64,000 nt of DNA from Alphaproteobacteria bacterium (GTDB lineage Bacteria; Pseudomonadota; Alphaproteobacteria; Micavibrionales; UBA2020): the NCBI GenBank assembly GCA_025934695.1, contig JAICWS010000004.1, positions 26,666-90,665 on the forward strand, read 5' to 3'. The notes below the pieces were generated by a model that was not told the DNA's origin, searched no databases, and was given only the letters and a program-made list of their open reading frames with translations. The position numbers and the translations under genes were made by a program. Each line of letters opens with the position of its first letter. The stretch's first letter is position 1. Positions 53,949-64,000 of the stretch are shown piece by piece.

Positions 53949-54677
53949 TTAGAACGGGCGGATCAGGCCCATGCGGATGGCTTTGGCCACGGCCAGCGGC
54001 ACGTTGTTGACGTCGAGCTTTTGGAAAATGCTTTCGCAATGGCGCTTGATGCTGGATTCACTGACGCTGAGGATGTCGGCCACATCCGGCTTGGTCTTGC
54101 CGCGCGCCAGCCAAAGTAAAACCTCGCATTCGCGGTTGGTGAGGCGAATATTGCCGGGGTCGAGCGTATTGTATTTCGTCAGGTCGGCATAGCACACGAA
54201 GAAGTGGTTCGCCGCCGCATAAATCAGGCTCAGCGCGTCCTTGTCGCAGCGGGCGTCTTTTTCCGAGCCTGCGAAACCCATGCCAATGATGCCGCCGAGC
54301 GGCTGGTGGATCGAGAGGCCCACGCCGCTGTAAAGCTTGTGCTCGCGGCCTTCCTGTAACACCCGCAGGGATTCTTTTGAGATGTTTTTTTGCGTTTCGA
54401 CTTCCGACCAGGTGAAAGGCTTTCTGGCAGTCAGCGCCGCGTGGTAAATGGGGTCGTGGTCGACGTAATGGTTGGCGACATAGTGCTGCATCCACTCTTG
54501 CGGATAATTCACCAGCAGGCCGAGATATTTTTCCTTCTGCGACGTGGAGTCATGGGAAATTTCGCCCATGATGAAACGATCCATGCCAAAGCCGCCTAGG
54601 AATTTGAGGAATTGGTTCTTCAACTCCTCTACCGAGGTGATCCGGTTCGTTTCGCAGATGAATTCTGTAAGGTCCAT
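53949..54677 (-). CDS. LuxR-family quorum-sensing regulator (no adjacent luxI)
   Basis: YPQEWMQHY, DPI, FTW and G of the autoinducer-binding domain; HTH LTNRECEVL..LARGKT. Confidence 0.93.
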   Translation of the reverse strand: MDLTEFICETNRITSVEELKNQFLKFLGGFGMDRFIMGEISHDSTSQKEKYLGLLVNYPQEWMQHYVANHYVDHDPIYHAALTARKPFTWSEVETQKNISKESLRVLQEGREHKLYSGVGLSIHQPLGGIIGMGFAGSEKDARCDKDALSLIYAAANHFFVCYADLTKYNTLDPGNIRLTNRECEVLLWLARGKTKPDVADILSVSESSIKRHCESIFQKLDVNNVPLAVAKAIRMGLIRPF

Positions 54678-54938
54678 TTTTTATTATAAGTCGGGAATGC
54701 CAACATATTAGATAACTTTGAATGCAATTTTAGTCAAAATCGATGGGATGGTGGCTATTCAAGCCCTTTCCTGCGAACAGGCTCCCCACGATGCTTACCT
54801 AAGTATCTGTTATGACAAGATTAAACTTGGTTTGGCCGAATGGCCAAGTTACACCGGCGTAACCGCGCGCGACCATGCATCACCATTTTAAGGGAAGCTT
54901 GCCAACGCAAAATCGCAACGTAGAAAGGGAAAAGTTCA

Positions 54939-55868
54939 ATGGCCCAGGTTCAAAGATTTAAGGCATCCGCGCCGGTCGCAGAAATCAATCTCGCACTGGA
55001 GGACGACGGCTGCGTCGTCATCGAAGGGCTGCTCGAGGAGCGGCAGGTGCGCCAGTTGCAGGCGGAGATGCGAAAGAATTTCAATTCCATTCCCGTCTGC
55101 CAGGGAAATTTCTTTGGGTTCGCTACGAAGCGCATGAGCGGCATCATCGCGAAATCCGAAGTATCGCATGATATGGCGGTCAATCCGGCAATTCTAGGCG
55201 TAATGGATCATTTTCTGCTCAAATCCTGCCGCGAATATCAGCTGAATTTGACGCAGGCGATCCAGATATGGCCCGGTGAACCCGCGCAAATCATTCATAC
55301 GGACGAACTGCTGTTTCCGTTCGATCATCCTGGCGTGCAGGCCATGATCAACTGCATGTGGGCCGTGGATGACTTTACTGCCGATAACGGCGCCACACAT
55401 GTCGTGCCAGGTAGCCACAAGTGGCCCAAGGATCGCCAGCCCGAACCGCACGAAATTTGCCAAGGTGAAATGCCGGCAGGTTCGGTGCTGATTTATTTCG
55501 GCGGCCTTCTGCATGGCGGCGGTGCGAACACGACCGCCAGCACGCCGCGGACCGGCCTCGTCATCAGCTATAGCCTGGGGTGGCTGCGTCAGGCGGAAAA
55601 CCATTATCTCGCCGTGCCACGCGAGATTGCGCGCCAGCTGCCGAACCGGCTGCAGCGCCTGCTCGGCTATTTTGTGCATGAACCGAACGTCGGTTGCGTC
55701 GAAGGAAAGAACCCGATCAAGCTGCTGGAAGGCGAGAACATCGTCAACGGCCGCTTCGAGGAATTCATTCCCGCCGAAATCCAGCCGCTGCTGGAGGAGT
55801 ATCGCCAGAAGGCGACCTCCAGCCAGTTGCTAAACACGCGCGAACTTTACGAGAAGAAATCGGCGTAA
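54939..55868 (+). CDS. PhyH-family Fe(II)/2-oxoglutarate dioxygenase
   Basis: QIIHTD, NGATHVVPGSH, LHGGGAN, GWLRQAEN. Confidence 0.92.
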   Translation: MAQVQRFKASAPVAEINLALEDDGCVVIEGLLEERQVRQLQAEMRKNFNSIPVCQGNFFGFATKRMSGIIAKSEVSHDMAVNPAILGVMDHFLLKSCREYQLNLTQAIQIWPGEPAQIIHTDELLFPFDHPGVQAMINCMWAVDDFTADNGATHVVPGSHKWPKDRQPEPHEICQGEMPAGSVLIYFGGLLHGGGANTTASTPRTGLVISYSLGWLRQAENHYLAVPREIARQLPNRLQRLLGYFVHEPNVGCVEGKNPIKLLEGENIVNGRFEEFIPAEIQPLLEEYRQKATSSQLLNTRELYEKKSA

Positions 55869-56130: not shown

Positions 56131-57669
56131 ATGACGCCCGCCGAAGTCCAGACCGCCCCTAAGGAAAAAGCCTCGACCTCTTCCGCCGCGCCGACCTTTG
56201 GCCGTCGCAAAGCCATCGCACCACCCGCGTCGAAACCCGAAACGCCGCTGCCGTCGGTGCCGGAAAAACGCGACATCCAGAGCCTCATCGCCGCAACCAT
56301 GAATTATGCCGAAGCTTACGCGGGCAAGAACCCGACGCCGCACCTGACCAACGGCGAGCCGCGCATCGCCACGCTGGACGCCGACACGATGCTGTCGCCC
56401 CACCTTGAAATGGGCCTGTCGATCGCGTTGCAGGCCTTCAAAAACACTGTCGACGCCCGTCAGTTCGCGCGCCTGGGCCGCAAGGAGGCGCTCGCCGAAA
56501 TACAGCTCGTCGTTGAGCAGGTGGCCAAGCACCGCGACCTGGCGCTGTCCGTGGGCGAGATTGCGCGCCTGTCCAAGGCGCTCTCTGACGAAGTCCTGGG
56601 TCTCGGCCCCTTGGAGCCGCTGCTGGCCCGCGACGATATTTCCGAGATCATGGTGAACGGGCCCGACACCGTTTACATCGAAATCGACGGCATCGTCGAA
56701 AAATCGCAACTCTCGTTCCGCGACGAAGAACAGCTGGTGCAGATCTGCCAGCGCATCGCGCAGCGCGTCGGCCGCCACGTGGATGAGGCCATGCCGATGT
56801 GCGATGCCCGCCTGCATGACGGCAGCCGCGTGAATATCATCCTGCCGCCGCTGTCGCTGGGCGGCGCGACGCTGACCATCCGCAAGTTCAAGCGCGACAA
56901 GCTGACGCTCGACAAGCTGCTGGAGTTCGGCTCCATCGACCAGCTGGGCGCGGACCTGATCCGCCTGATCGCCGGCTGCCGCGTGAACACGATTGTTTCC
57001 GGCGGCACCGGCAGCGGCAAGACCACGATGCTGAACTGCCTGACCCGCTACATCCACCCGCGCGAGCGCATCGTCACTTGCGAAGACTCGGCCGAGCTGC
57101 AATTGCAGCAGCCGCATGTCGTGCGCCTCGAAACCCGCATGGCAAACCTGGAGGGCGCGGGCGAGGTCACCATGCGCGACCTAGTGCGCAACTGCCTGCG
57201 CATGCGCCCCGAGCGCATTATTGTCGGAGAGGTGCGCGGCCAGGAAGCCTTCGATCTCTTGCAGGCGATGAACACCGGCCATGACGGCTCCATGGGCACC
57301 GTGCATGCCAATACACCGCGCGACGCGCTCGACCGCATCGAAAGCATGGTCGCGATGAACCGCCTGAACATTCCCGCCGAAACCATCCGCCGCCAGATCG
57401 CCTCGTCGATCAACATCATCATCCAGGTTCAGCGCCTGCGCGACGGTTCGCGCAAGGTCATGAGCATCTCGGAAGTCACCGGCCTGGAAGGCGACATGAT
57501 CTCGATGCACGACCTGCTGACCTACGAGATCGACGGCGAGGACGAAAACGGCATGGTCACCGGCCGTTTCGTCGCCTCGGGCCTGCGCCCGCGCTTCTAT
57601 CCGAAGCTTAAGGAATTCGGCATGCAGCACCTGTATGACGCCATCATTGAGCAGTATCTGAAGAAGTGA
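56131..57669 (+). CDS. cpaF: Tad/Flp pilus assembly ATPase CpaF/TadA
   Basis: [65 protein letters not shown]. Confidence 0.95.
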
Positions 57670-57749: not shown

Positions 57750-58448
57750 ATGCTGGATGTAATTTGGAATTCACTATGCTGCGACAAAGGATTGCTGCGG
57801 CGACGAAGGTTGTGGGATAATTCTGTCGATATGAATCTTAGAAATCTCCGCGACGAAGATGTGACGATTGAAAAGCTGTTACCAAAAGCAGCGTATGGAG
57901 ATTTTTTTGCTCTCCTTAATCTCGCAGCGCTCCACAATATTGCTCGAAATTGGGAGCAGGCTTATTTCTGGGGAGGTCTATACCATCGCGAAAAATATCC
58001 CGAAACGAAAGAATATAATCTCGATTATCTGGGCGCTACCCATTTGACCACCGAGCAAAAAGTCGTTTTGGACAAAAAAATCGAAGAGTGGGAGCCAGCG
58101 CCGATCCCTGACGACGTCAAGCAAGCGCTTTCGGATTTGCAGGCCCATGCGGCGCGGGGGGATCCTAAAGCCCTGTTCGACCTAGGTATGGAAATGACGT
58201 GGCCGGATGAATACTGGTCAGGCTGGGGGATCGAGAGGAATACAACCGAAGCTATCAAATTGTGGGAACGCGCCGCGACACAGGGTTATATCGAAGCGCA
58301 GTTTGAATTGGGTGAAGTTTACTCCAAGGGGCTGGGGGCGAGACCTGATATCCTAACGGCGATAAAATGGTACCGCATGGCCGCCGCGCAGGGGCATGAA
58401 GAGGCACAGACCAATCTCGACCTCTTGAAGCGAAATGGCTACGAATGA
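57750..58448 (+). CDS. Sel1-like repeat protein
   Basis: ALFDLG, AIKLWERAATQG, AQFELGEVYSKGLG, AIKWYRMAAAQGHEEAQ; visibly more AT-rich than its neighbours. Start may be ATG 57831. Confidence 0.8.
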   Translation: MLDVIWNSLCCDKGLLRRRRLWDNSVDMNLRNLRDEDVTIEKLLPKAAYGDFFALLNLAALHNIARNWEQAYFWGGLYHREKYPETKEYNLDYLGATHLTTEQKVVLDKKIEEWEPAPIPDDVKQALSDLQAHAARGDPKALFDLGMEMTWPDEYWSGWGIERNTTEAIKLWERAATQGYIEAQFELGEVYSKGLGARPDILTAIKWYRMAAAQGHEEAQTNLDLLKRNGYE

Positions 58449-58647: not shown

Positions 58648-60033
58648 ATGAAAGTCAAAGTCATCAATCCCCCGAACGATCCGTTCAGTTCGCGCGGCAT
58701 CCTGATCGAGCCGATCGATGCGCTCAATGTCGCGTCCTTCATCGCGGGGCTGGGGCACGAGGTGGAGCTCGTCGACATGGATATCCGCCGCATGCCGGCG
58801 AACGATTACACGCGGGCGCTGCGCGGCGGCGCGGCCTATGATCTTGCCGTCATCGTCCACGATTATCACATTCCGCTGCACCAGGATGGCGCGCTCGCGT
58901 CCGTGAAGGAAATCGCGCGGCAGGCAAAGGCGCACGGCGCGGCGGTCGTCGCGGGCGGCAAGGCCGCGACTTACCGGCCCGAAAAATTGCTGGACGACGG
59001 CTGCATTCGTGCCGCCATCCAGCACGAAATGGAACCGGCGCTGGAATCATTGTTGCTGGCGGACGACTGGACTGACGCGGGGCTTCGCGATGTTTCCGGT
59101 ATCGCGTTCCGGTCGGCGGACGGGAACATCGTTTCTTCTTCGCGCGACAAAACCGCCTTCGACCTTGCGCGGCTGCCGATCCCCGACCGCGGGCTGGTGG
59201 CGCTGGGCGAATATATCGACGTGCGCACGATATTGTCGAGCCGCGGCTGTCATATGACCTGCGGTTTCTGCCACGTGCCCGGCTTCTGGGGCGGCTGGCG
59301 GGGGCGCAGCGCCGCATCGGTGGTCCATGAAATAGAAACGCTCCTCGCACAGCATGGGGCGAAGAAAATCTTGTTCCTAGACGACAATGCGACGGTGAGC
59401 AAGAAACGTATGAAGGAAATCTGCCGCGGCGTGCGCGAGCGTGGCATCCGCGTGGCGATGGGTTGTCTTGGCTCCCTGTCGCTGTACGACCGCGGCATGA
59501 TGGAAGACATGTACGCCGCCGGCTTCCGCTGGATCCATTACGGCGTCGAAAGTGGCGACGACGGACAGCTCGGCGCTATTCACAAGAAAATCTCTGCCTC
59601 GGAGGCGCGGCGGATCGTCGCGGAAACGCGCGGCATCGGCTTCCGCGTGCGCACGAGCTGGATCATGGACCTGCCCGACGCCACGGAGGATCAACTGAAG
59701 CGCACGGCGGATATGATCCTCGAGACGCGGACGGAAGAAATCCGCCTTCACCATCTGGCGCTGCGCATGGGCAGCCGGTTTTACGACGATTACCCGGCGC
59801 AGCCGTCCAGCCAATATATCCACCACGGACGCCAGAACCAGAACCTGTCGCGCATGGAAGACGGCAGGGTCGCCGACATCGTGTCGGCATTGACGCGCGA
59901 ACTGGCGTCGTCCCACGCCGTGGTCACAAATCCGGATGAATTTATCGACATGGATGCGCTGCAAAGCCGCAGCCGCAACCTTCAGATCGCATCTTTGTGC
60001 CCCCTGCGCTACGGGCTGGGGTGGCAGGCATGA
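58648..60033 (+). CDS. Cobalamin-binding radical SAM enzyme
   Basis: N-terminal B12-binding domain (VINPP, VDMD, VVAGG); SRGCHMTCGFC; FLDDN; GVESG. Confidence 0.92.
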   Translation: MKVKVINPPNDPFSSRGILIEPIDALNVASFIAGLGHEVELVDMDIRRMPANDYTRALRGGAAYDLAVIVHDYHIPLHQDGALASVKEIARQAKAHGAAVVAGGKAATYRPEKLLDDGCIRAAIQHEMEPALESLLLADDWTDAGLRDVSGIAFRSADGNIVSSSRDKTAFDLARLPIPDRGLVALGEYIDVRTILSSRGCHMTCGFCHVPGFWGGWRGRSAASVVHEIETLLAQHGAKKILFLDDNATVSKKRMKEICRGVRERGIRVAMGCLGSLSLYDRGMMEDMYAAGFRWIHYGVESGDDGQLGAIHKKISASEARRIVAETRGIGFRVRTSWIMDLPDATEDQLKRTADMILETRTEEIRLHHLALRMGSRFYDDYPAQPSSQYIHHGRQNQNLSRMEDGRVADIVSALTRELASSHAVVTNPDEFIDMDALQSRSRNLQIASLCPLRYGLGWQA

Positions 60034-60653
60034 CGCTCGCGCTTGGCATCACCGGGCAGATGGGCACCGGCAAGACCTGGCTGGTGAACGCTTTTGCGTC
60101 TTACCTGAAGCAGAAAGACACGCCGGTGAAGATCGTTTCGGTCGACGAGATCCGCCGCCGCCTGATGACCACCTCGCCGCGCCATGCGGATTTGCGCGCC
60201 CAGGTGTCGAAACATTTCGGTTTGCCGCTGGGTGCTGAAGGCGGCTTCGACCTGCAAAAGCTGGCGGCCGCTATTTTCGGGCTCCCGCAGGGGCGCGAGG
60301 AATTCTGGGCGATTGCCGGCACCGGCATCCTGGCGGCGGCGCGCGGCGAAATGGTGGGCACCGGCGTGCGCCTGCTGGAATGGGCGCGGCTGATTGAGGA
60401 CGGGTTTCTGCCGCTGGTCGACCGCGTGATCGTCACAAGCTGCAGCGCGGACACGCAGCGGAAAAGGCTGGACGGCGGCGACCTGCCGCCGGAGCAGGTG
60501 CAAAAGCGCCTGCTGCTGCAAATGAAGGCCGATGACATGGCGGAGGCCTTGTCCATCCACGGCATGAAATTCCGCCTGTTCGACACGACGGCGTGCCCTG
60601 CCGCCGAGGCTTATCACCGGCTCTGCGACGAGGCGCTGCATGAAACCGCGTGA
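60030..60653 (+). CDS. Dephospho-CoA-kinase-like P-loop kinase
   Basis: GITGQMGTGKT, KLAAAIFG, VDRVIV, QRKRL..QKRLLLQ; ATGA overlap with the upstream gene. Confidence 0.8.
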   Translation: MTLALGITGQMGTGKTWLVNAFASYLKQKDTPVKIVSVDEIRRRLMTTSPRHADLRAQVSKHFGLPLGAEGGFDLQKLAAAIFGLPQGREEFWAIAGTGILAAARGEMVGTGVRLLEWARLIEDGFLPLVDRVIVTSCSADTQRKRLDGGDLPPEQVQKRLLLQMKADDMAEALSIHGMKFRLFDTTACPAAEAYHRLCDEALHETA

Positions 60654-62568
60654 ATTCGCGGCGCCTGTTGCGCCCGTTTCTGAATTCGACCCCGACGTGT
60701 CGTTCTGCCTGTTCCGTATCCCCAAACAGGGTGGCCGCGTGATCTGGGAGGTGACGAACACCTGCAATTACGGTTGCCGCTATTGCATCTTCAGCTCCAC
60801 GCCGCGCCAGCAGAAGGACGAGCTGGACAGCGCCAAGGTCTTCGACACGATCACGGCGCTGCGCGACAATGGTTTCACGCATGTGAAGATCACTGGCGGC
60901 GAGCCCTTTACCCGTCCTGACATCATGGACATCTTGCGCGCCTGCCGTACTGCGGGGCTGAAGACCGATATTTCCACCAATGCCTCGATGATCAGCCGCG
61001 AGACGGCTGCGGAGCTTGCGGCCCTCGATCTTGAAATGGTGCATGTCAGCATCGACGGCAGCACGAAAGAAATGCATGAGGCGGTGCGCGGCAAGCGGAC
61101 GTGGGAGCCGACGCTGGACGGGCTGCGGCATCTGGCCGCCGCCAATATCCGTTTGCGTGCGGGCTGCGTTGTCTATATGGGCAATGAAAACGATTTAACC
61201 GCTATCGCGTCATTCTGTGCCGATGAGGGCTGCGACCAGGTGATTTTCTCGCGTATGGAGCCGGTCGGGCGCATGCGCGGAAGGGAAGAGCTTGTTTCCA
61301 CCCTGTCGAATGCAGAAATGCAGGAGCGTGTGACGCAGGCGGCGCAGGCCATGGCCGGGCGCATCAGGGTCAGCGGCAGCTTTGCCGAACCCACCGCGGG
61401 CGGCTGCGCCGCTTGTCCGGGCGGTGAGCGGTTCCTGTTCATTGACCACAAAGGCCGCGTGTCGCCCTGCACCTGGGTCGCCGAGCGCAAGCCCGAATAC
61501 AGGGCTGCGAAGACACTGCATGATTGCAGCCTTTCCGACATTCTCTGCGGCAAAGAGAACCAGCACTTTCGCGGACTGGTGACGGGCTTACGCGATGCCG
61601 GCCTCAACCGCTGCCCGATGCGGGCAGTGCCGGATGTCGAGGAGGCCAAGCGGGCGCAGAAGCTATTCAGCGGCGACTTGGACGCGAATCTCTCGGCGGG
61701 TGGAAAATTCTCGCCGATCAGCCCTGTCTATGCCTTCGCGACCGAAAATATCGGCGGGTATTTTCCCAACATCGATTTCCGCGACAAGGCCGTCCTAACG
61801 GTGGCGAGTTCCGGCGACCATGCGATCAATGCCTTTGCCGCAGGAGCCGCCGAGGTAACCTGTTTCGATCTCGACCACCTCAGCCGTCCCATGGTGGAAC
61901 TGAAATTAGCGATGCTTCAGGCCCTGGAGCTGGAAAACTATTGCCGCTTTTTTCTGCAAGGGCCGGAGGCTTTCGACTTTGAGGTTTATAAGGACTTGCG
62001 GAAACGGCTTCCGCTGGCGGCGCGCTATTTCTGGGACCGGGCCTATGACTATTTCAACGGAGACGGCGCTGCATTGCGCGCCTCATCCCTGTTCCGGGAC
62101 CGCCACGACCCGCGCGATGCGGCAGACCTGTCGGCAAATGCGCTGAAGAATAATCCCTATCTTACTTTTGTCGAGACATTCGCTGGCGCACAGGCGGCAT
62201 GCCGGGGCAGGCATGTTCGCTTTATCCAGTCGGATGTGACAATGCTGGCGGAGAAGCTGACGGCGCCCTACGATATCATTCTTCTCTCGAACCTGTCGGA
62301 TTACGCACATAAGATGTTCGAAGGCGACTGCCTCACGGAATATCAGAAGCAAATCGTCGAGCCGTTGGCCAAACGCCTCGCGCCAGGTGGGATGATAGCC
62401 TTTGGCTATGTCTATGACGTGCTCGACCTGCATGGTTCGAAAGCGCGCAGCCCGGTCAACGATCCGGCCGCGCGGCGGCAGGCCTTTGGCGACCACATCG
62501 AAATAGAAATTCCCAGCACCATCGACGCAGGCAACCACGATACGGTGCTGTTCCGGAGGTCCGCGTGA
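60640..62568 (+). CDS. Radical SAM (twitch/SPASM) enzyme fused to a BtaA/DUF3419-like SAM-dependent domain
   Basis: CNYGCRYC, TGGEP, STN, VSIDG, CPGG..FIDHKGRVSPC; then VLTVASSGDHA, FDL, ELKLA, LLSNLSDY. Confidence 0.88.
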   Translation: MKPREFAAPVAPVSEFDPDVSFCLFRIPKQGGRVIWEVTNTCNYGCRYCIFSSTPRQQKDELDSAKVFDTITALRDNGFTHVKITGGEPFTRPDIMDILRACRTAGLKTDISTNASMISRETAAELAALDLEMVHVSIDGSTKEMHEAVRGKRTWEPTLDGLRHLAAANIRLRAGCVVYMGNENDLTAIASFCADEGCDQVIFSRMEPVGRMRGREELVSTLSNAEMQERVTQAAQAMAGRIRVSGSFAEPTAGGCAACPGGERFLFIDHKGRVSPCTWVAERKPEYRAAKTLHDCSLSDILCGKENQHFRGLVTGLRDAGLNRCPMRAVPDVEEAKRAQKLFSGDLDANLSAGGKFSPISPVYAFATENIGGYFPNIDFRDKAVLTVASSGDHAINAFAAGAAEVTCFDLDHLSRPMVELKLAMLQALELENYCRFFLQGPEAFDFEVYKDLRKRLPLAARYFWDRAYDYFNGDGAALRASSLFRDRHDPRDAADLSANALKNNPYLTFVETFAGAQAACRGRHVRFIQSDVTMLAEKLTAPYDIILLSNLSDYAHKMFEGDCLTEYQKQIVEPLAKRLAPGGMIAFGYVYDVLDLHGSKARSPVNDPAARRQAFGDHIEIEIPSTIDAGNHDTVLFRRSA

Positions 62569-63245
62569 AGAACCTCCAGGAAAAATCCCCGATCTATTAC
62601 GCGGAGGCGGATATATATGACGCTTTCGCGCAGGCCGAGGATGCGGAAGGACTGGTCCTGCAGGCTCTGCAGCCGCTTGTCGCCGGGAAGCGGGTGCTCG
62701 ACCTCGGCTGCGGCACGGGAAAGTATGTCGAATTGCTCGCACCGCATGCAGCGCATATCATCGGTCTCGACGCCGCGCCCGCGCAGCTGGCCATCGCGAG
62801 GCGCCGGGCGGACGGCTTGCGCAACGTCGACTTCGCCCTGGGCGATGCGCTGGATGCATCGCTGCCGAAAGAGAAATATGATATCGTCCTTGCCTGCTGG
62901 ATGCTGGGCACCGTTGCCGATAAAGCAAAGCGCGCCGCAATCCTGCGCCGCATGGAAAAGCTCGCCCCGCATATCGTGCTGGTCGAAAATGCTGAAGGCA
63001 GCGAATTCGAGGCCGTTCGCGGACGCGTGAACGATCCGCGGCGACGCACGCGGCGTTACAATGAATGGCTAATCGGACAGGGATTTCGTGAAACCGACCG
63101 GCTCGAGGCACTGTTTGAATTCAGAACAGTCGATGAGGCGCGGAATATCTTCGCCGCCATCTGGGGCGAGGATAAACGCCCGCTTTTGACCGCCAGGCAT
63201 ATCGGTCATAAAATCGCGATATATCAGAAGAGGATAGGCATTTGA
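62565..63245 (+). CDS. Class I SAM-dependent methyltransferase
   Basis: VLDLGCGTG, IGLD, GDA, YDIVL; GTGA overlap with the upstream gene. Confidence 0.92.
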   Translation: MKNLQEKSPIYYAEADIYDAFAQAEDAEGLVLQALQPLVAGKRVLDLGCGTGKYVELLAPHAAHIIGLDAAPAQLAIARRRADGLRNVDFALGDALDASLPKEKYDIVLACWMLGTVADKAKRAAILRRMEKLAPHIVLVENAEGSEFEAVRGRVNDPRRRTRRYNEWLIGQGFRETDRLEALFEFRTVDEARNIFAAIWGEDKRPLLTARHIGHKIAIYQKRIGI

Positions 63246-63275
63246 TTGACGGCGCTTGCCGCGATTGAATACAAT
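63246..63275 (+). promoter_or_regulatory. Sigma70-like promoter
   Basis: TTGACG-N18-TACAAT upstream of the 77-aa ORF. Confidence 0.5.
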
Positions 63276-63312: not shown

Positions 63313-63546
63313 ATGTCAGAGAATTTATCCAGCGGATCGAGCGGCAGCGAAAATCTTGTCTCTCCGCCGCCGCGCCAGGCGCGGCCACCGGCGCAACCCG
63401 CGCCGCGCCGGAACCTTTCCGTGGCTCGCCCTGCGGATACCCCGAAGCAATCTGGCTCTTCGATGGCCGATGAGAAGGCGAAGCTGCTGAAGAAGATGAA
63501 GGCCAGCAAGCCGGCGGGCCTCAAGGACAATAAGAAACAAGATTGA
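63313..63546 (+). CDS. 77-aa low-complexity peptide (Ser/Pro/Lys-rich), possible ATP-grasp substrate
   Basis: GAGG RBS; SENL twice; stop TGA overlaps the TTG start of the ATP-grasp gene. Confidence 0.6.
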   Translation: MSENLSSGSSGSENLVSPPPRQARPPAQPAPRRNLSVARPADTPKQSGSSMADEKAKLLKKMKASKPAGLKDNKKQD

Positions 63547-64000
63547 CCGTTCCCGATCTTCACCACCTGCACACCAACCAGCGCCTGCTGCTGGAAGAGC
63601 TTCTGTCGCGCGGCGCGGAGGTTGAGATCATTGACGCGCAGCGCGAGATCGTCCGCGTCATTTACAGGGGCCGCGCCCGCTACCTGATCGACCGCACGAC
63701 CAGCGAAGTCGCTCATGTACCTGCGGTCCTGGCCGCGGACAAGTTCATGACCAAGCGCATCCTGCGCGAAGCGGGCATCCGCGCGCCGGACGGCGAAATC
63801 TTTTCCGAAGACACGCTGCATGAAGCCGTCGAATTTGCGCGGCAGCGCGGCTTCCGGGTTGTGTTCAAGCCCAACCACGGCTCTCACGGCAGGCACGTCG
63901 AAACCGACATTCGCGGCGAAGAGGATATCGAGCGCGCGGTCGAGCGCTATCTGTCCGACAGCAGCGGGTCGGGTGAATTCCTGATCGAAGATTTGGTCGA
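63543..64000 (+). CDS. ATP-grasp ligase (cyanophycin synthetase / GshAB-like ATP-grasp domain), partial
   Basis: Hand translation from TTG 63543 gives LAADKFMTKRILREAGIRAPDG...VVFKPNHGSHG...FLIED, open to the window end. Confidence 0.85.
   Translation, partial: MTVPDLHHLHTNQRLLLEELLSRGAEVEIIDAQREIVRVIYRGRARYLIDRTTSEVAHVPAVLAADKFMTKRILREAGIRAPDGEIFSEDTLHEAVEFARQRGFRVVFKPNHGSHGRHVETDIRGEEDIERAVERYLSDSSGSGEFLIEDLV

Follow-up and report, generated by a model that had tools for sequence, protein, structure and literature searches.

In a 64,000-nt stretch of an Alphaproteobacteria bacterium genome (contig JAICWS010000004.1, positions 26666-90665, our G000:C7; hereafter, the window), four overlapping genes at 58648-63245 had been predicted to form a four-gene operon rich in S-adenosylmethionine (SAM)-using enzymes, with either a hypermodified nucleoside or nucleotide or a radical-modified betaine-type lipid as its product. 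Here, we find that these four genes make up the upstream portion of a conserved six-gene, seven-module cassette, which continues with a gene for a small protein carrying a glutamate (Glu)-centred motif and with a gene for an ATP-grasp ligase, the latter lying partly past the window end. Judged from sequence, the cassette on balance probably encodes an undescribed protein-modification pathway, or one resembling those of peptides that are made on the ribosome and modified after translation (RiPPs), and its substrate would be the cassette-encoded Glu-motif protein, not a nucleoside or a betaine lipid. This reading builds on direct observations, namely the co-conservation of the modules across bacterial and archaeal phyla, their natural fusions, the motif itself and the adjacency of the small open reading frame (ORF) to the ATP-grasp gene.

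The ORF coordinates and Pfam matches bear out the four overlapping genes on the plus strand, with four SAM-type domains and a P-loop kinase. Gene 1 (58648-60033, 461 aa) encodes a B12-binding-like radical SAM enzyme of the class B type, and gene 2 (59997-60653) a CoaE-like P-loop kinase of 218 aa if read from the GTG at 59997, or of 207 aa from the likely in-frame start ATG at 60030, which gives an ATGA overlap with the gene 1 stop. Gene 3 (60640-62568, 642 aa) is a fusion of a radical SAM part with Twitch-like features (approximately residues 1-330) to a DUF3419/class I SAM transferase part (approximately 355-642), and gene 4 (62565-63245, 226 aa), overlapping gene 3 by GTGA, encodes a class I SAM-dependent methyltransferase. 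Successive genes share 37, 14 and 4 nt (only 4 nt in the first case, should gene 2 start at the ATG), and for none of the four proteins does a match attain a curated cut-off in NCBIfam. Contrary to what was originally supposed, the operon extends past 63245 on the same strand, with a 77-aa ORF (63313-63546), preceded by GAGGA 5 nt before its ATG, whose stop has 4 nt (TTGA) in common with the TTG start of the ATP-grasp gene. The latter gene (63543-64544, corresponding to G000:C7:90208-91209 and to 1209-2210 of locus record L002, which covers the window end and the sequence downstream) encodes 333 aa and extends 544 nt beyond the window end at 64000. In tblastn searches with the ATP-grasp proteins of four related loci (L006, L008, L009 and L022), the orthologue was placed on the plus strand with 70-40% identity, the match to the L006 protein (70%) lying at C7:90214-91203. 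A 464-aa minus-strand ORF opposite the ATP-grasp gene (L002:951-2345, no Pfam match), which had been taken as the convergent end of the operon, was rejected as a shadow ORF because these searches put the conserved ATP-grasp on the plus strand there.

The cassette was delimited by comparison with its relatives. Scanning one genome per species (185,579 species) yielded 224 stretches with a relative, and in the best 80 of these 224, ORFs were called and searched with the window proteins. Family members were recognized in 68 of the 80 loci; the other 12 (L017-L019, L032, L074, L075, L079-L081 and L083-L085) are fragmentary, lie at contig ends or hold distant radical SAM relatives. At least 2.3 kb upstream and at least 2.8 kb downstream of the anchor are available in 52 of the 68 members, which we call flank-complete. 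The original prediction was staked on co-conservation of the genes elsewhere, and in the flank-complete set the modules indeed occur together in 45-51 of 52 loci, with 51 loci encoding the B12-like radical SAM enzyme, 50 the kinase, 49 the ATP-grasp and 45 the methyltransferase. Their usual order is B12-like radical SAM enzyme, kinase, radical SAM enzyme, DUF3419, small ORF, ATP-grasp and methyltransferase, with the methyltransferase preceding the small ORF in proteobacterial, Bdellovibrionales and some loci of the Candidate Phyla Radiation (CPR), and with the radical SAM and DUF3419 modules as separate genes in Firmicutes and DPANN archaea. Natural fusions follow the gene order: kinase, radical SAM and DUF3419 are joined in P0012, and these three plus the methyltransferase in P0031 and P0039, the kinase part of P0039 being a weak, sub-cut-off CoaE match. 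A 1010-aa protein in L016 combines radical SAM, DUF3419 and methyltransferase modules after an N-terminal segment of approximately 190 aa without assignment, and P0051 joins radical SAM and methyltransferase modules and, at the E-value limit applied, shows no match to DUF3419.

The hosts comprise an alphaproteobacterial metagenome-assembled genome (MAG), an 'uncultured Micavibrio sp.' MAG and Bdellovibrionales; Peribacteria, Peregrinibacteria and Patescibacteria of the CPR; Woese-, Pace- and Nanoarchaeota of the DPANN; Gastranaerophilales (Melainabacteria); and many gut Clostridia, Bacilli, Tenericutes and Mollicutes MAGs. For the fusion protein, a word-indexed protein search retrieved approximately 90 full-length homologues, all but a few of them metagenomic and none informatively named, while a scan of metagenome contigs with P0003 found only two distant radical SAM loci (L086 and L087, 28% identity), which were not used. 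Within the window's own order the distribution is patchy, the gene being present in two of 14 other genomes of the genus and in none of the 186 others searched. The only other recurring neighbours are NUDIX genes, ABC-type genes and Mob_Pre. Genes flanking the cassette in this genome, namely those for a Sel1-repeat protein, a T2SSE-type ATPase, a PIG-L deacetylase and an S9 prolyl oligopeptidase, were considered as members and rejected, their homologues occurring in none of the related loci; the cassette is thus self-contained.

The 77-aa protein starts MSENLSSGSSGSENL, carries the SENL motif twice (MSENL...GSENL) and ends in a Lys-rich tail, making it a candidate substrate or scaffold. Orthologues with 56-58% identity are encoded in two congeneric genomes (L006 and L007), where indels keep the frame and where MSENL, SG.SSG and ENL are invariant among the three proteins; no paralogue was found elsewhere in the genome. 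Across the related loci, a small ORF of 51-215 aa lies nearly always directly upstream of the ATP-grasp gene, and it keeps this position where the pair changes place within the cassette, as in L016 and between the alphaproteobacterial and Firmicutes orders. These small proteins allow no alignment across phyla and have no Pfam or NCBIfam match. A motif-bearing ORF nevertheless stands next to the ATP-grasp gene in 46 of the 52 flank-complete loci (an automatic pick gave 41, and inspection by eye a further five, L006, L026, L027, L030 and L063), which is the arrangement expected of a RiPP locus, a precursor gene with a conserved core motif beside the modifying enzymes. In L030 and L011, the motif protein is located elsewhere within the cassette.

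The motif takes the form GESR or SESR in Clostridia, Bacilli and DPANN (for instance MSESR...GESR...GESR..., many proteins ending in GESRW or GESR), GES-x in CPR, GESP, ETP, SEN or SED in the proteobacterial and Melainabacteria loci, and SENL and GENL in the window's genus. Its statistics were computed over 53 small proteins (52 loci and this genome), with ORFs of at least 260 aa in L010, L011, L013 and L030 excluded, as was L029, whose pick proved to be a piece of an ATP-grasp; in L006, a 66-aa ORF replaced the longer alternative-frame pick, and counts of residue positions add the L026 protein, giving 54. The small proteins typically contain from 2 to approximately 25 copies of [G/S]-E-[S/N/T], and ESR is by far the commonest tripeptide, occurring 198 times in the 53 proteins. 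In 32 of the 53, [GST]E[STND] is enriched over composition-preserving shuffles, at most 10 of 1000 of which reach the observed count. The sole invariant position is Glu. The residue after it is Ser in all 12 CPR instances, in 42 of the 44 from DPANN and in 188 of the 197 from Firmicutes, and in the proteobacterial group it is Asn in 10 of 20 instances and Ser, Asp or Thr in the rest. Of the 54 proteins, 30 start with M(S)E[S/N/D] and 28 carry the motif at the C-terminal end (...GES, ...SGE, ...GGE or ...GESR). The most repetitive architecture is that of a nanoarchaeotal protein (L026:9428-10153), in which approximately 25 tandem GES[R/K/N] units follow an N-terminal domain of about 100 aa (LKxxYGSxDIxxLVxF...) that is common to the DPANN versions. 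A short core that is repeated variably in otherwise unrelated scaffolds, and that is locked to an enzyme cassette, is the signature of a ribosomal substrate. In the ESM Atlas, one Clostridial small protein fell at 0.87 into an unnamed 'hypothetical protein' cluster, which serves as a lead only.

The partner of this small protein, the ATP-grasp ligase, scores 223 bits against the NCBIfam cyanophycin synthetase model over profile positions 188-473 of 862 (cut-off 850), 174 bits against GshAB and 152 bits against N-acetylglutaminylglutamine (NAGGN) synthetase, and it matches the cyanophycin synthetase structure 7wac with an E-value of 1e-46. All of these scores fall far short of the equivalog cut-offs; the ligase is a stand-alone domain and belongs to none of those families. 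The cyanophycin synthetase G domain, GshB-type ligases and NAGGN ligases add an amino acid to the carboxylate of a peptide or amino acid. A predicted complex between the ATP-grasp (alignment of 25 rows) and the small protein (3 rows) scored 0.07 against a mark of 0.32, which gives no answer and is evidence neither way.

Gene 3 combines two SAM-type domains. Its radical SAM part (Pfam Radical_SAM, 95 bits) is followed by a SPASM match (PF13186) of 20.5 bits that falls below the cut-off of 21.5. Among 26 family members, C42, C46 and C49 are invariant and are joined by only three further invariant cysteines, C259, C277 and C325. A Twitch half-motif reads CX9-15GX4C with a further Cys, and a full SPASM domain has a seven-Cys motif; the spacing C259-x12-G272-x4-C277 plus C325 of gene 3 is accordingly Twitch-like and not that of a full SPASM domain. 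The best NCBIfam neighbours are StsB (112 bits), MftC (106 bits) and NirJ (100 bits), each well short of its cut-off, with PqqE also near, and the radical SAM part matches the PqqE structure in the Protein Data Bank (PDB) with an E-value of 1.8e-13. Of these neighbours, StsB, MftC and PqqE are peptide maturases, in keeping with a peptide or protein substrate. The BtaA label given to the second part held insofar as DUF3419 (PF11899) scores 49.7 bits against a cut-off of 28.2, yet only profile positions 31-130 of 385 are aligned, and the analogy to BtaA and BtaB is weak, the match being a partial one to a generic class I SAM fold. The model of this domain (pLDDT 88.8) shows a class I SAM-dependent transferase fold that contains a helical insert, for which Foldseek found NNMT, PNMT and spermidine synthase nearest, at a TM-score of approximately 0.4. 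Since only generic class I methyltransferases were returned, transfer of a methyl group and of an aminocarboxypropyl group by this domain are indistinguishable. Gene 4 scores 65 bits against Methyltransf_25 and at best 55 bits against an NCBIfam model (CpaM, cut-off 180), which assigns it to no specific family.

Gene 1 had been labelled a B12-dependent radical SAM enzyme, and the two halves of that label fared differently. The radical SAM assignment stands (64 bits in Pfam, with C201, C205 and C208 of the CxxxCxxC motif invariant across 20 orthologues), whereas the N-terminal B12-binding match (PF02310) is weaker than stated, at 28.0 bits against a cut-off of 32.1. The AF2 model (pLDDT 90.9) aligns over its full length with AprD4, OxsB, TsrM and MgmA; AprD4 is the best Foldseek match (TM 0.71-0.72), followed by OxsB, MgmA, TsrM, CysS and TokK, with MiaB and RimO further off. 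AprD4 itself is not known to need cobalamin. In this genome, which is 99% complete, we found no other PF02310 protein, no RF00174 cobalamin riboswitch and neither PF02572 (CobA/BtuR) nor PF02654 (CobS), and the organism appears to be without a B12 economy of its own. Because these other markers are lacking, use of cobalamin by the gene 1 product seems doubtful, or else would rely on scavenging. A quick, unrooted tree of the gene 1 protein (62 rows, LG+G4, with SH-aLRT as the only branch support) resolves archaeal, CPR/proteobacterial, Clostridia and Bacilli groups, with the window protein joining its two congeners and then Bdellovibrionales at 100% SH-aLRT; as the tree is unrooted, we claim no direction of transfer.

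The CoaE-like label on gene 2 likewise survives at the level of the superfamily (Pfam CoaE, 35.4 bits, cut-off 27; PDB dephospho-CoA kinases, E-value 6e-6) but not at that of the equivalog, the score against the NCBIfam dephospho-CoA kinase model TIGR00152 being 36.4 bits against a cut-off of 65.55. The cassette kinase is thus classified, from its profile scores, as a divergent member of the CoaE superfamily. It is not the sole coaE of the genome: two tandem housekeeping copies (PF01121, 139 and 141 bits) follow an aroE-like shikimate dehydrogenase gene immediately downstream, at G000:C2:390078-391267 (L003:~900-2112). The first of them sits inside a longer 372-aa ORF with an Arg-rich, probably non-coding N-terminal extension.

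The presence in one cassette of a small repeat-motif protein and a cyanophycin-synthetase-like ATP-grasp indicates a peptide or protein substrate, and we found nothing that speaks specifically for either product named in the original prediction. In the pathway that we propose, the Glu of the motif, or a residue neighbouring it, would be the site modified. The two radical SAM enzymes may functionalize unactivated carbons, the fold of gene 1 being nearest to AprD4 and to C-methylases of peptides and proteins such as MgmA. The kinase would activate a hydroxyl and the ATP-grasp a carboxylate, both with ATP, the ATP-grasp being plausibly one of those ligases that, like the CphA G domain or GshB, extend the carboxylate of a peptide. 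The DUF3419 domain and the methyltransferase would attach SAM-derived groups. By analogy with the BtaA/BtaB and the diphthamide (Dph2/Dph5/Dph6) pathways, one possible logic here is transfer of 3-amino-3-carboxypropyl from SAM, subsequent N-methylation and an ATP-dependent ligation at the carboxylate, with the order of steps left free. The product might either stay on the protein or leave as many copies of a small molecule.

Several observations weigh against a ribosomal substrate. No motif protein was seen in six of the 52 flank-complete loci, enrichment of the motif is not strong by the shuffle test in 21 of the 53 small proteins, and the window protein itself has only two copies of the motif, a count attained in 10 of 1000 shuffles. 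Two Peribacteria loci have, upstream of the ATP-grasp gene, an ORF for a 486-488-aa repeat protein with the motif only at its C-terminal end (...SGE). The enzymes are ambiguous as well: the radical SAM core of gene 3 also resembles the small-molecule enzymes NirJ/AhbD, MoaA, BlsE and viperin, and CoaE-type kinases normally act on nucleotides. Pfam found a PqqD or RiPP recognition element (RRE) domain, which would recognize a peptide, in no cassette protein, and the related loci share neither a protease nor an exporter alongside the cassette; both features are unusual for exported RiPPs.

A first alternative, along the lines of the original prediction, is that the small protein is a bystander. 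In that case the cassette would follow a small-molecule route to a modified nucleoside or nucleotide, an antibiotic or antiviral (compare viperin with its kinase, and OxsB), with the small protein as a mere passenger, whether unrelated or regulatory. The fusion, in relatives, of a kinase of nucleotide type to the radical SAM core of gene 3 fits such a route, as does the score of that core against viperin models (73 bits for PADLOC pVip, over the radical SAM core only, and 61.7 bits for NCBIfam NF038283), the occurrence of MoaA and BlsE among the relatives of gene 3 and of OxsB among the structural neighbours of gene 1, the patchy distribution within the window's genus and order, and the Mob_Pre genes beside the cassette in six Firmicutes loci. 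However, the NCBIfam viperin score is far under its cut-off of 180 and is exceeded by those of the peptide-maturase models, no PADLOC system was matched beyond generic radical SAM, P-loop or methyltransferase hits, and a full-length member (at least 80% of P0003) was found in none of the 275 matching records among 72,556 plasmid records and in none of the nine matching records among 50,697 phage records. Moreover, a nucleotide product gives no reason for the presence, in 46 of 52 loci from different phyla, of a repeat-motif protein next to the ATP-grasp, and we consider such a product unlikely. The betaine-type lipid of the original prediction, modelled on BtaA/BtaB, fares worse still: it would account for a DUF3419 match above the Pfam cut-off with a methyltransferase next to it, but that match covers 100 of the 385 profile positions and the fold is a generic one for class I SAM transferases, the related loci share no membrane or lipid-handling gene alongside the cassette, many of the hosts are CPR or DPANN, and both the ATP-grasp and the small protein remain without a role. 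We regard a lipid product as highly improbable.

A third possibility retains the small protein and assigns it another task. As in the LysW/LysX system, it might be a multivalent amino-group carrier, to each motif Glu of which the ATP-grasp tethers an amine-bearing small molecule; the remaining enzymes would then build the product and a hydrolase would release it. A motif centred on an invariant Glu, often at the very C-terminus, would suit a carrier, as would the constant adjacency of the ATP-grasp and the presence of a kinase, which the LysW pathway also has; in this genome, moreover, a PIG-L family amidase/deacetylase gene begins 10 nt past the ATP-grasp stop and could supply the release step. 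That gene, however, occurs in no related locus, and no other release hydrolase is conserved with the cassette there; the ATP-grasp scores just 33 bits against the LysX model (cut-off 275.6), and the small proteins, lacking any Pfam or NCBIfam match, show no recognizable LysW-like domain. We hold the carrier to be an improbable explanation, and modification of the Glu-motif protein itself stays our preferred reading.

If the small Glu-motif protein is indeed the substrate, the cassette would represent new RiPP-like or protein-modification chemistry, and it would provide the first functions for a DUF3419 branch outside betaine lipids and for a CoaE-like kinase outside CoA synthesis. Carrying the argument further, and more tentatively, we think it possible, if short of probable, that the cassette makes a new, cross-domain class of ribosomal product, in which two radical SAM enzymes, together with a P-loop kinase, a 3-amino-3-carboxypropyl-type SAM transferase, a methyltransferase and a CphA-like ATP-grasp, convert a multi-copy Glu-Ser/Asn motif protein, yielding either a new residue derived from Glu or a small molecule in many copies. 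Such a pathway would be retained mainly by predators, episymbionts and organisms with reduced genomes (Micavibrio-like bacteria, Bdellovibrionales, CPR, DPANN and gut Mollicutes-like Bacilli), suggesting a role toward hosts or prey. Unless its role were important, a costly SAM-dependent pathway of six or seven genes would hardly be expected to persist in the very small genomes of CPR, DPANN and Mollicutes-like gut Bacilli and in bacterial predators. Homologues with up to approximately 25 GESR copies would offer an unusually easy mass-spectrometry handle on the chemistry.

Some further features of the locus and its relatives deserve mention. Between gene 4 and the small ORF, at 63246-63275 on the plus strand (L002 912-941), a consensus scan found a sigma-70-like match, TTGACG-18-TACAAT (10/12), which is a pattern only and no evidence of function. 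Upstream of the cassette lie genes for a LuxR-type autoinducer-binding regulator (53949-54677, minus strand), a PhyH-family dioxygenase (54939-55868), a T2SSE/T4P-type secretion ATPase (56131-57669) and a Sel1-repeat protein (57750-58448), and the GC content falls to 0.51 at 54000-55500, against approximately 0.60 elsewhere. Downstream, the PIG-L gene is followed on the same strand by that of the S9 prolyl oligopeptidase (together L002:2220-5253; window numbering 64554-67587). These two could be lineage-specific additions, for example release or processing enzymes, or unrelated; in the closest relative, L006, a serralysin-type M10 metalloprotease with RTX repeats (L006:11938-13851) follows the ATP-grasp where this genome has PIG-L. 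In six Firmicutes MAG loci, five from Clostridia (L025, at 196-1374, L033, L034, L036 and L047) and one from Bacilli (L062), a plasmid Mob_Pre gene (PF01076) lies a few kb upstream, which hints at carriage of the cassette on mobilizable elements in Firmicutes. In the Peribacteria MAGs L017, L018, L019 and L032, the anchor gene appears only as many short ORF fragments under translation table 11, which could reflect another genetic code or poor assembly. A search of sequencing runs listed no RNA run, and one DNA run contained a 0.38 share of the sampled words, which is not taken as evidence.

The cassette is real and conserved, and it appears to be undescribed. In keeping with the original prediction of an undescribed pathway, no characterized pathway was matched in NCBIfam, PADLOC or the literature searched, and no description of the cassette or of its enzyme combination was found in that literature, subscription journals and supplementary files lying outside the search. 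In the portions of the literature that were accessible, no paper pairs DUF3419 with radical SAM, and work on DUF3419 deals with betaine lipids of algae and plants and with unrelated topics; in the accessible part of PMC11459464, 'btaa' occurs in DOI strings only. The accessible part of a survey of graspetides (PMC8939145) makes no mention of cyanophycin, B12, dephospho or CoaE, and its supplementary ATP-grasp tables might list the family.

Among characterized enzymes, those closest to gene 1 are the class B radical SAM proteins AprD4, OxsB, MgmA, TsrM, CysS and TokK, with which its model shares a two-domain architecture (TM 0.63-0.72); MgmA and ApyD, which act on residues of proteins or peptides, are among its NCBIfam neighbours, at 85 bits each. 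Gene 3 resembles the maturases PqqE, MftC, StsB and SkfB in its CxxxCxxC core and in a C-terminal extension with Cys residues for an auxiliary cluster, and the presence of a small ribosomal protein in the gene cluster is a further likeness. It departs from them in its sub-cut-off scores, in having three auxiliary cysteines only, in the lack of a PqqD or RRE domain, and in its fusion to a DUF3419 domain and, in relatives, also to a kinase and a methyltransferase. With BtaA/BtaB, the cassette has in common a Pfam family, DUF3419 being that of BtaA; however, it matches only the SAM-binding part, has no lipid context, and would use the Glu-motif protein as the acceptor. The likeness to diphthamide synthesis lies only in the possible reaction logic, and we claim no homology to Dph proteins.

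The ATP-grasp aligns over the whole length of its domain with the cyanophycin synthetase G domain, the GshB-type domain of GshAB and NAGGN synthetase, but unlike CphA1, which comprises N, G and M domains in approximately 870-900 aa, the 333-aa cassette ligase corresponds to the G-domain region only, has neither M nor N domain and is paired with a small repeat protein. LysW/LysX likewise combines a small protein bearing a functional Glu with an adjacent ATP-grasp and a kinase in the operon, whereas the cassette has no LysW-like domain and instead features many motif repeats and radical SAM enzymes. Finally, multi-core RiPP precursors, such as those of cyanobactins and fungal dikaritins, also repeat a short core variably within a variable precursor; the cassette differs from these systems in having no conserved protease, exporter or leader-recognition domain, and in employing another set of enzymes.

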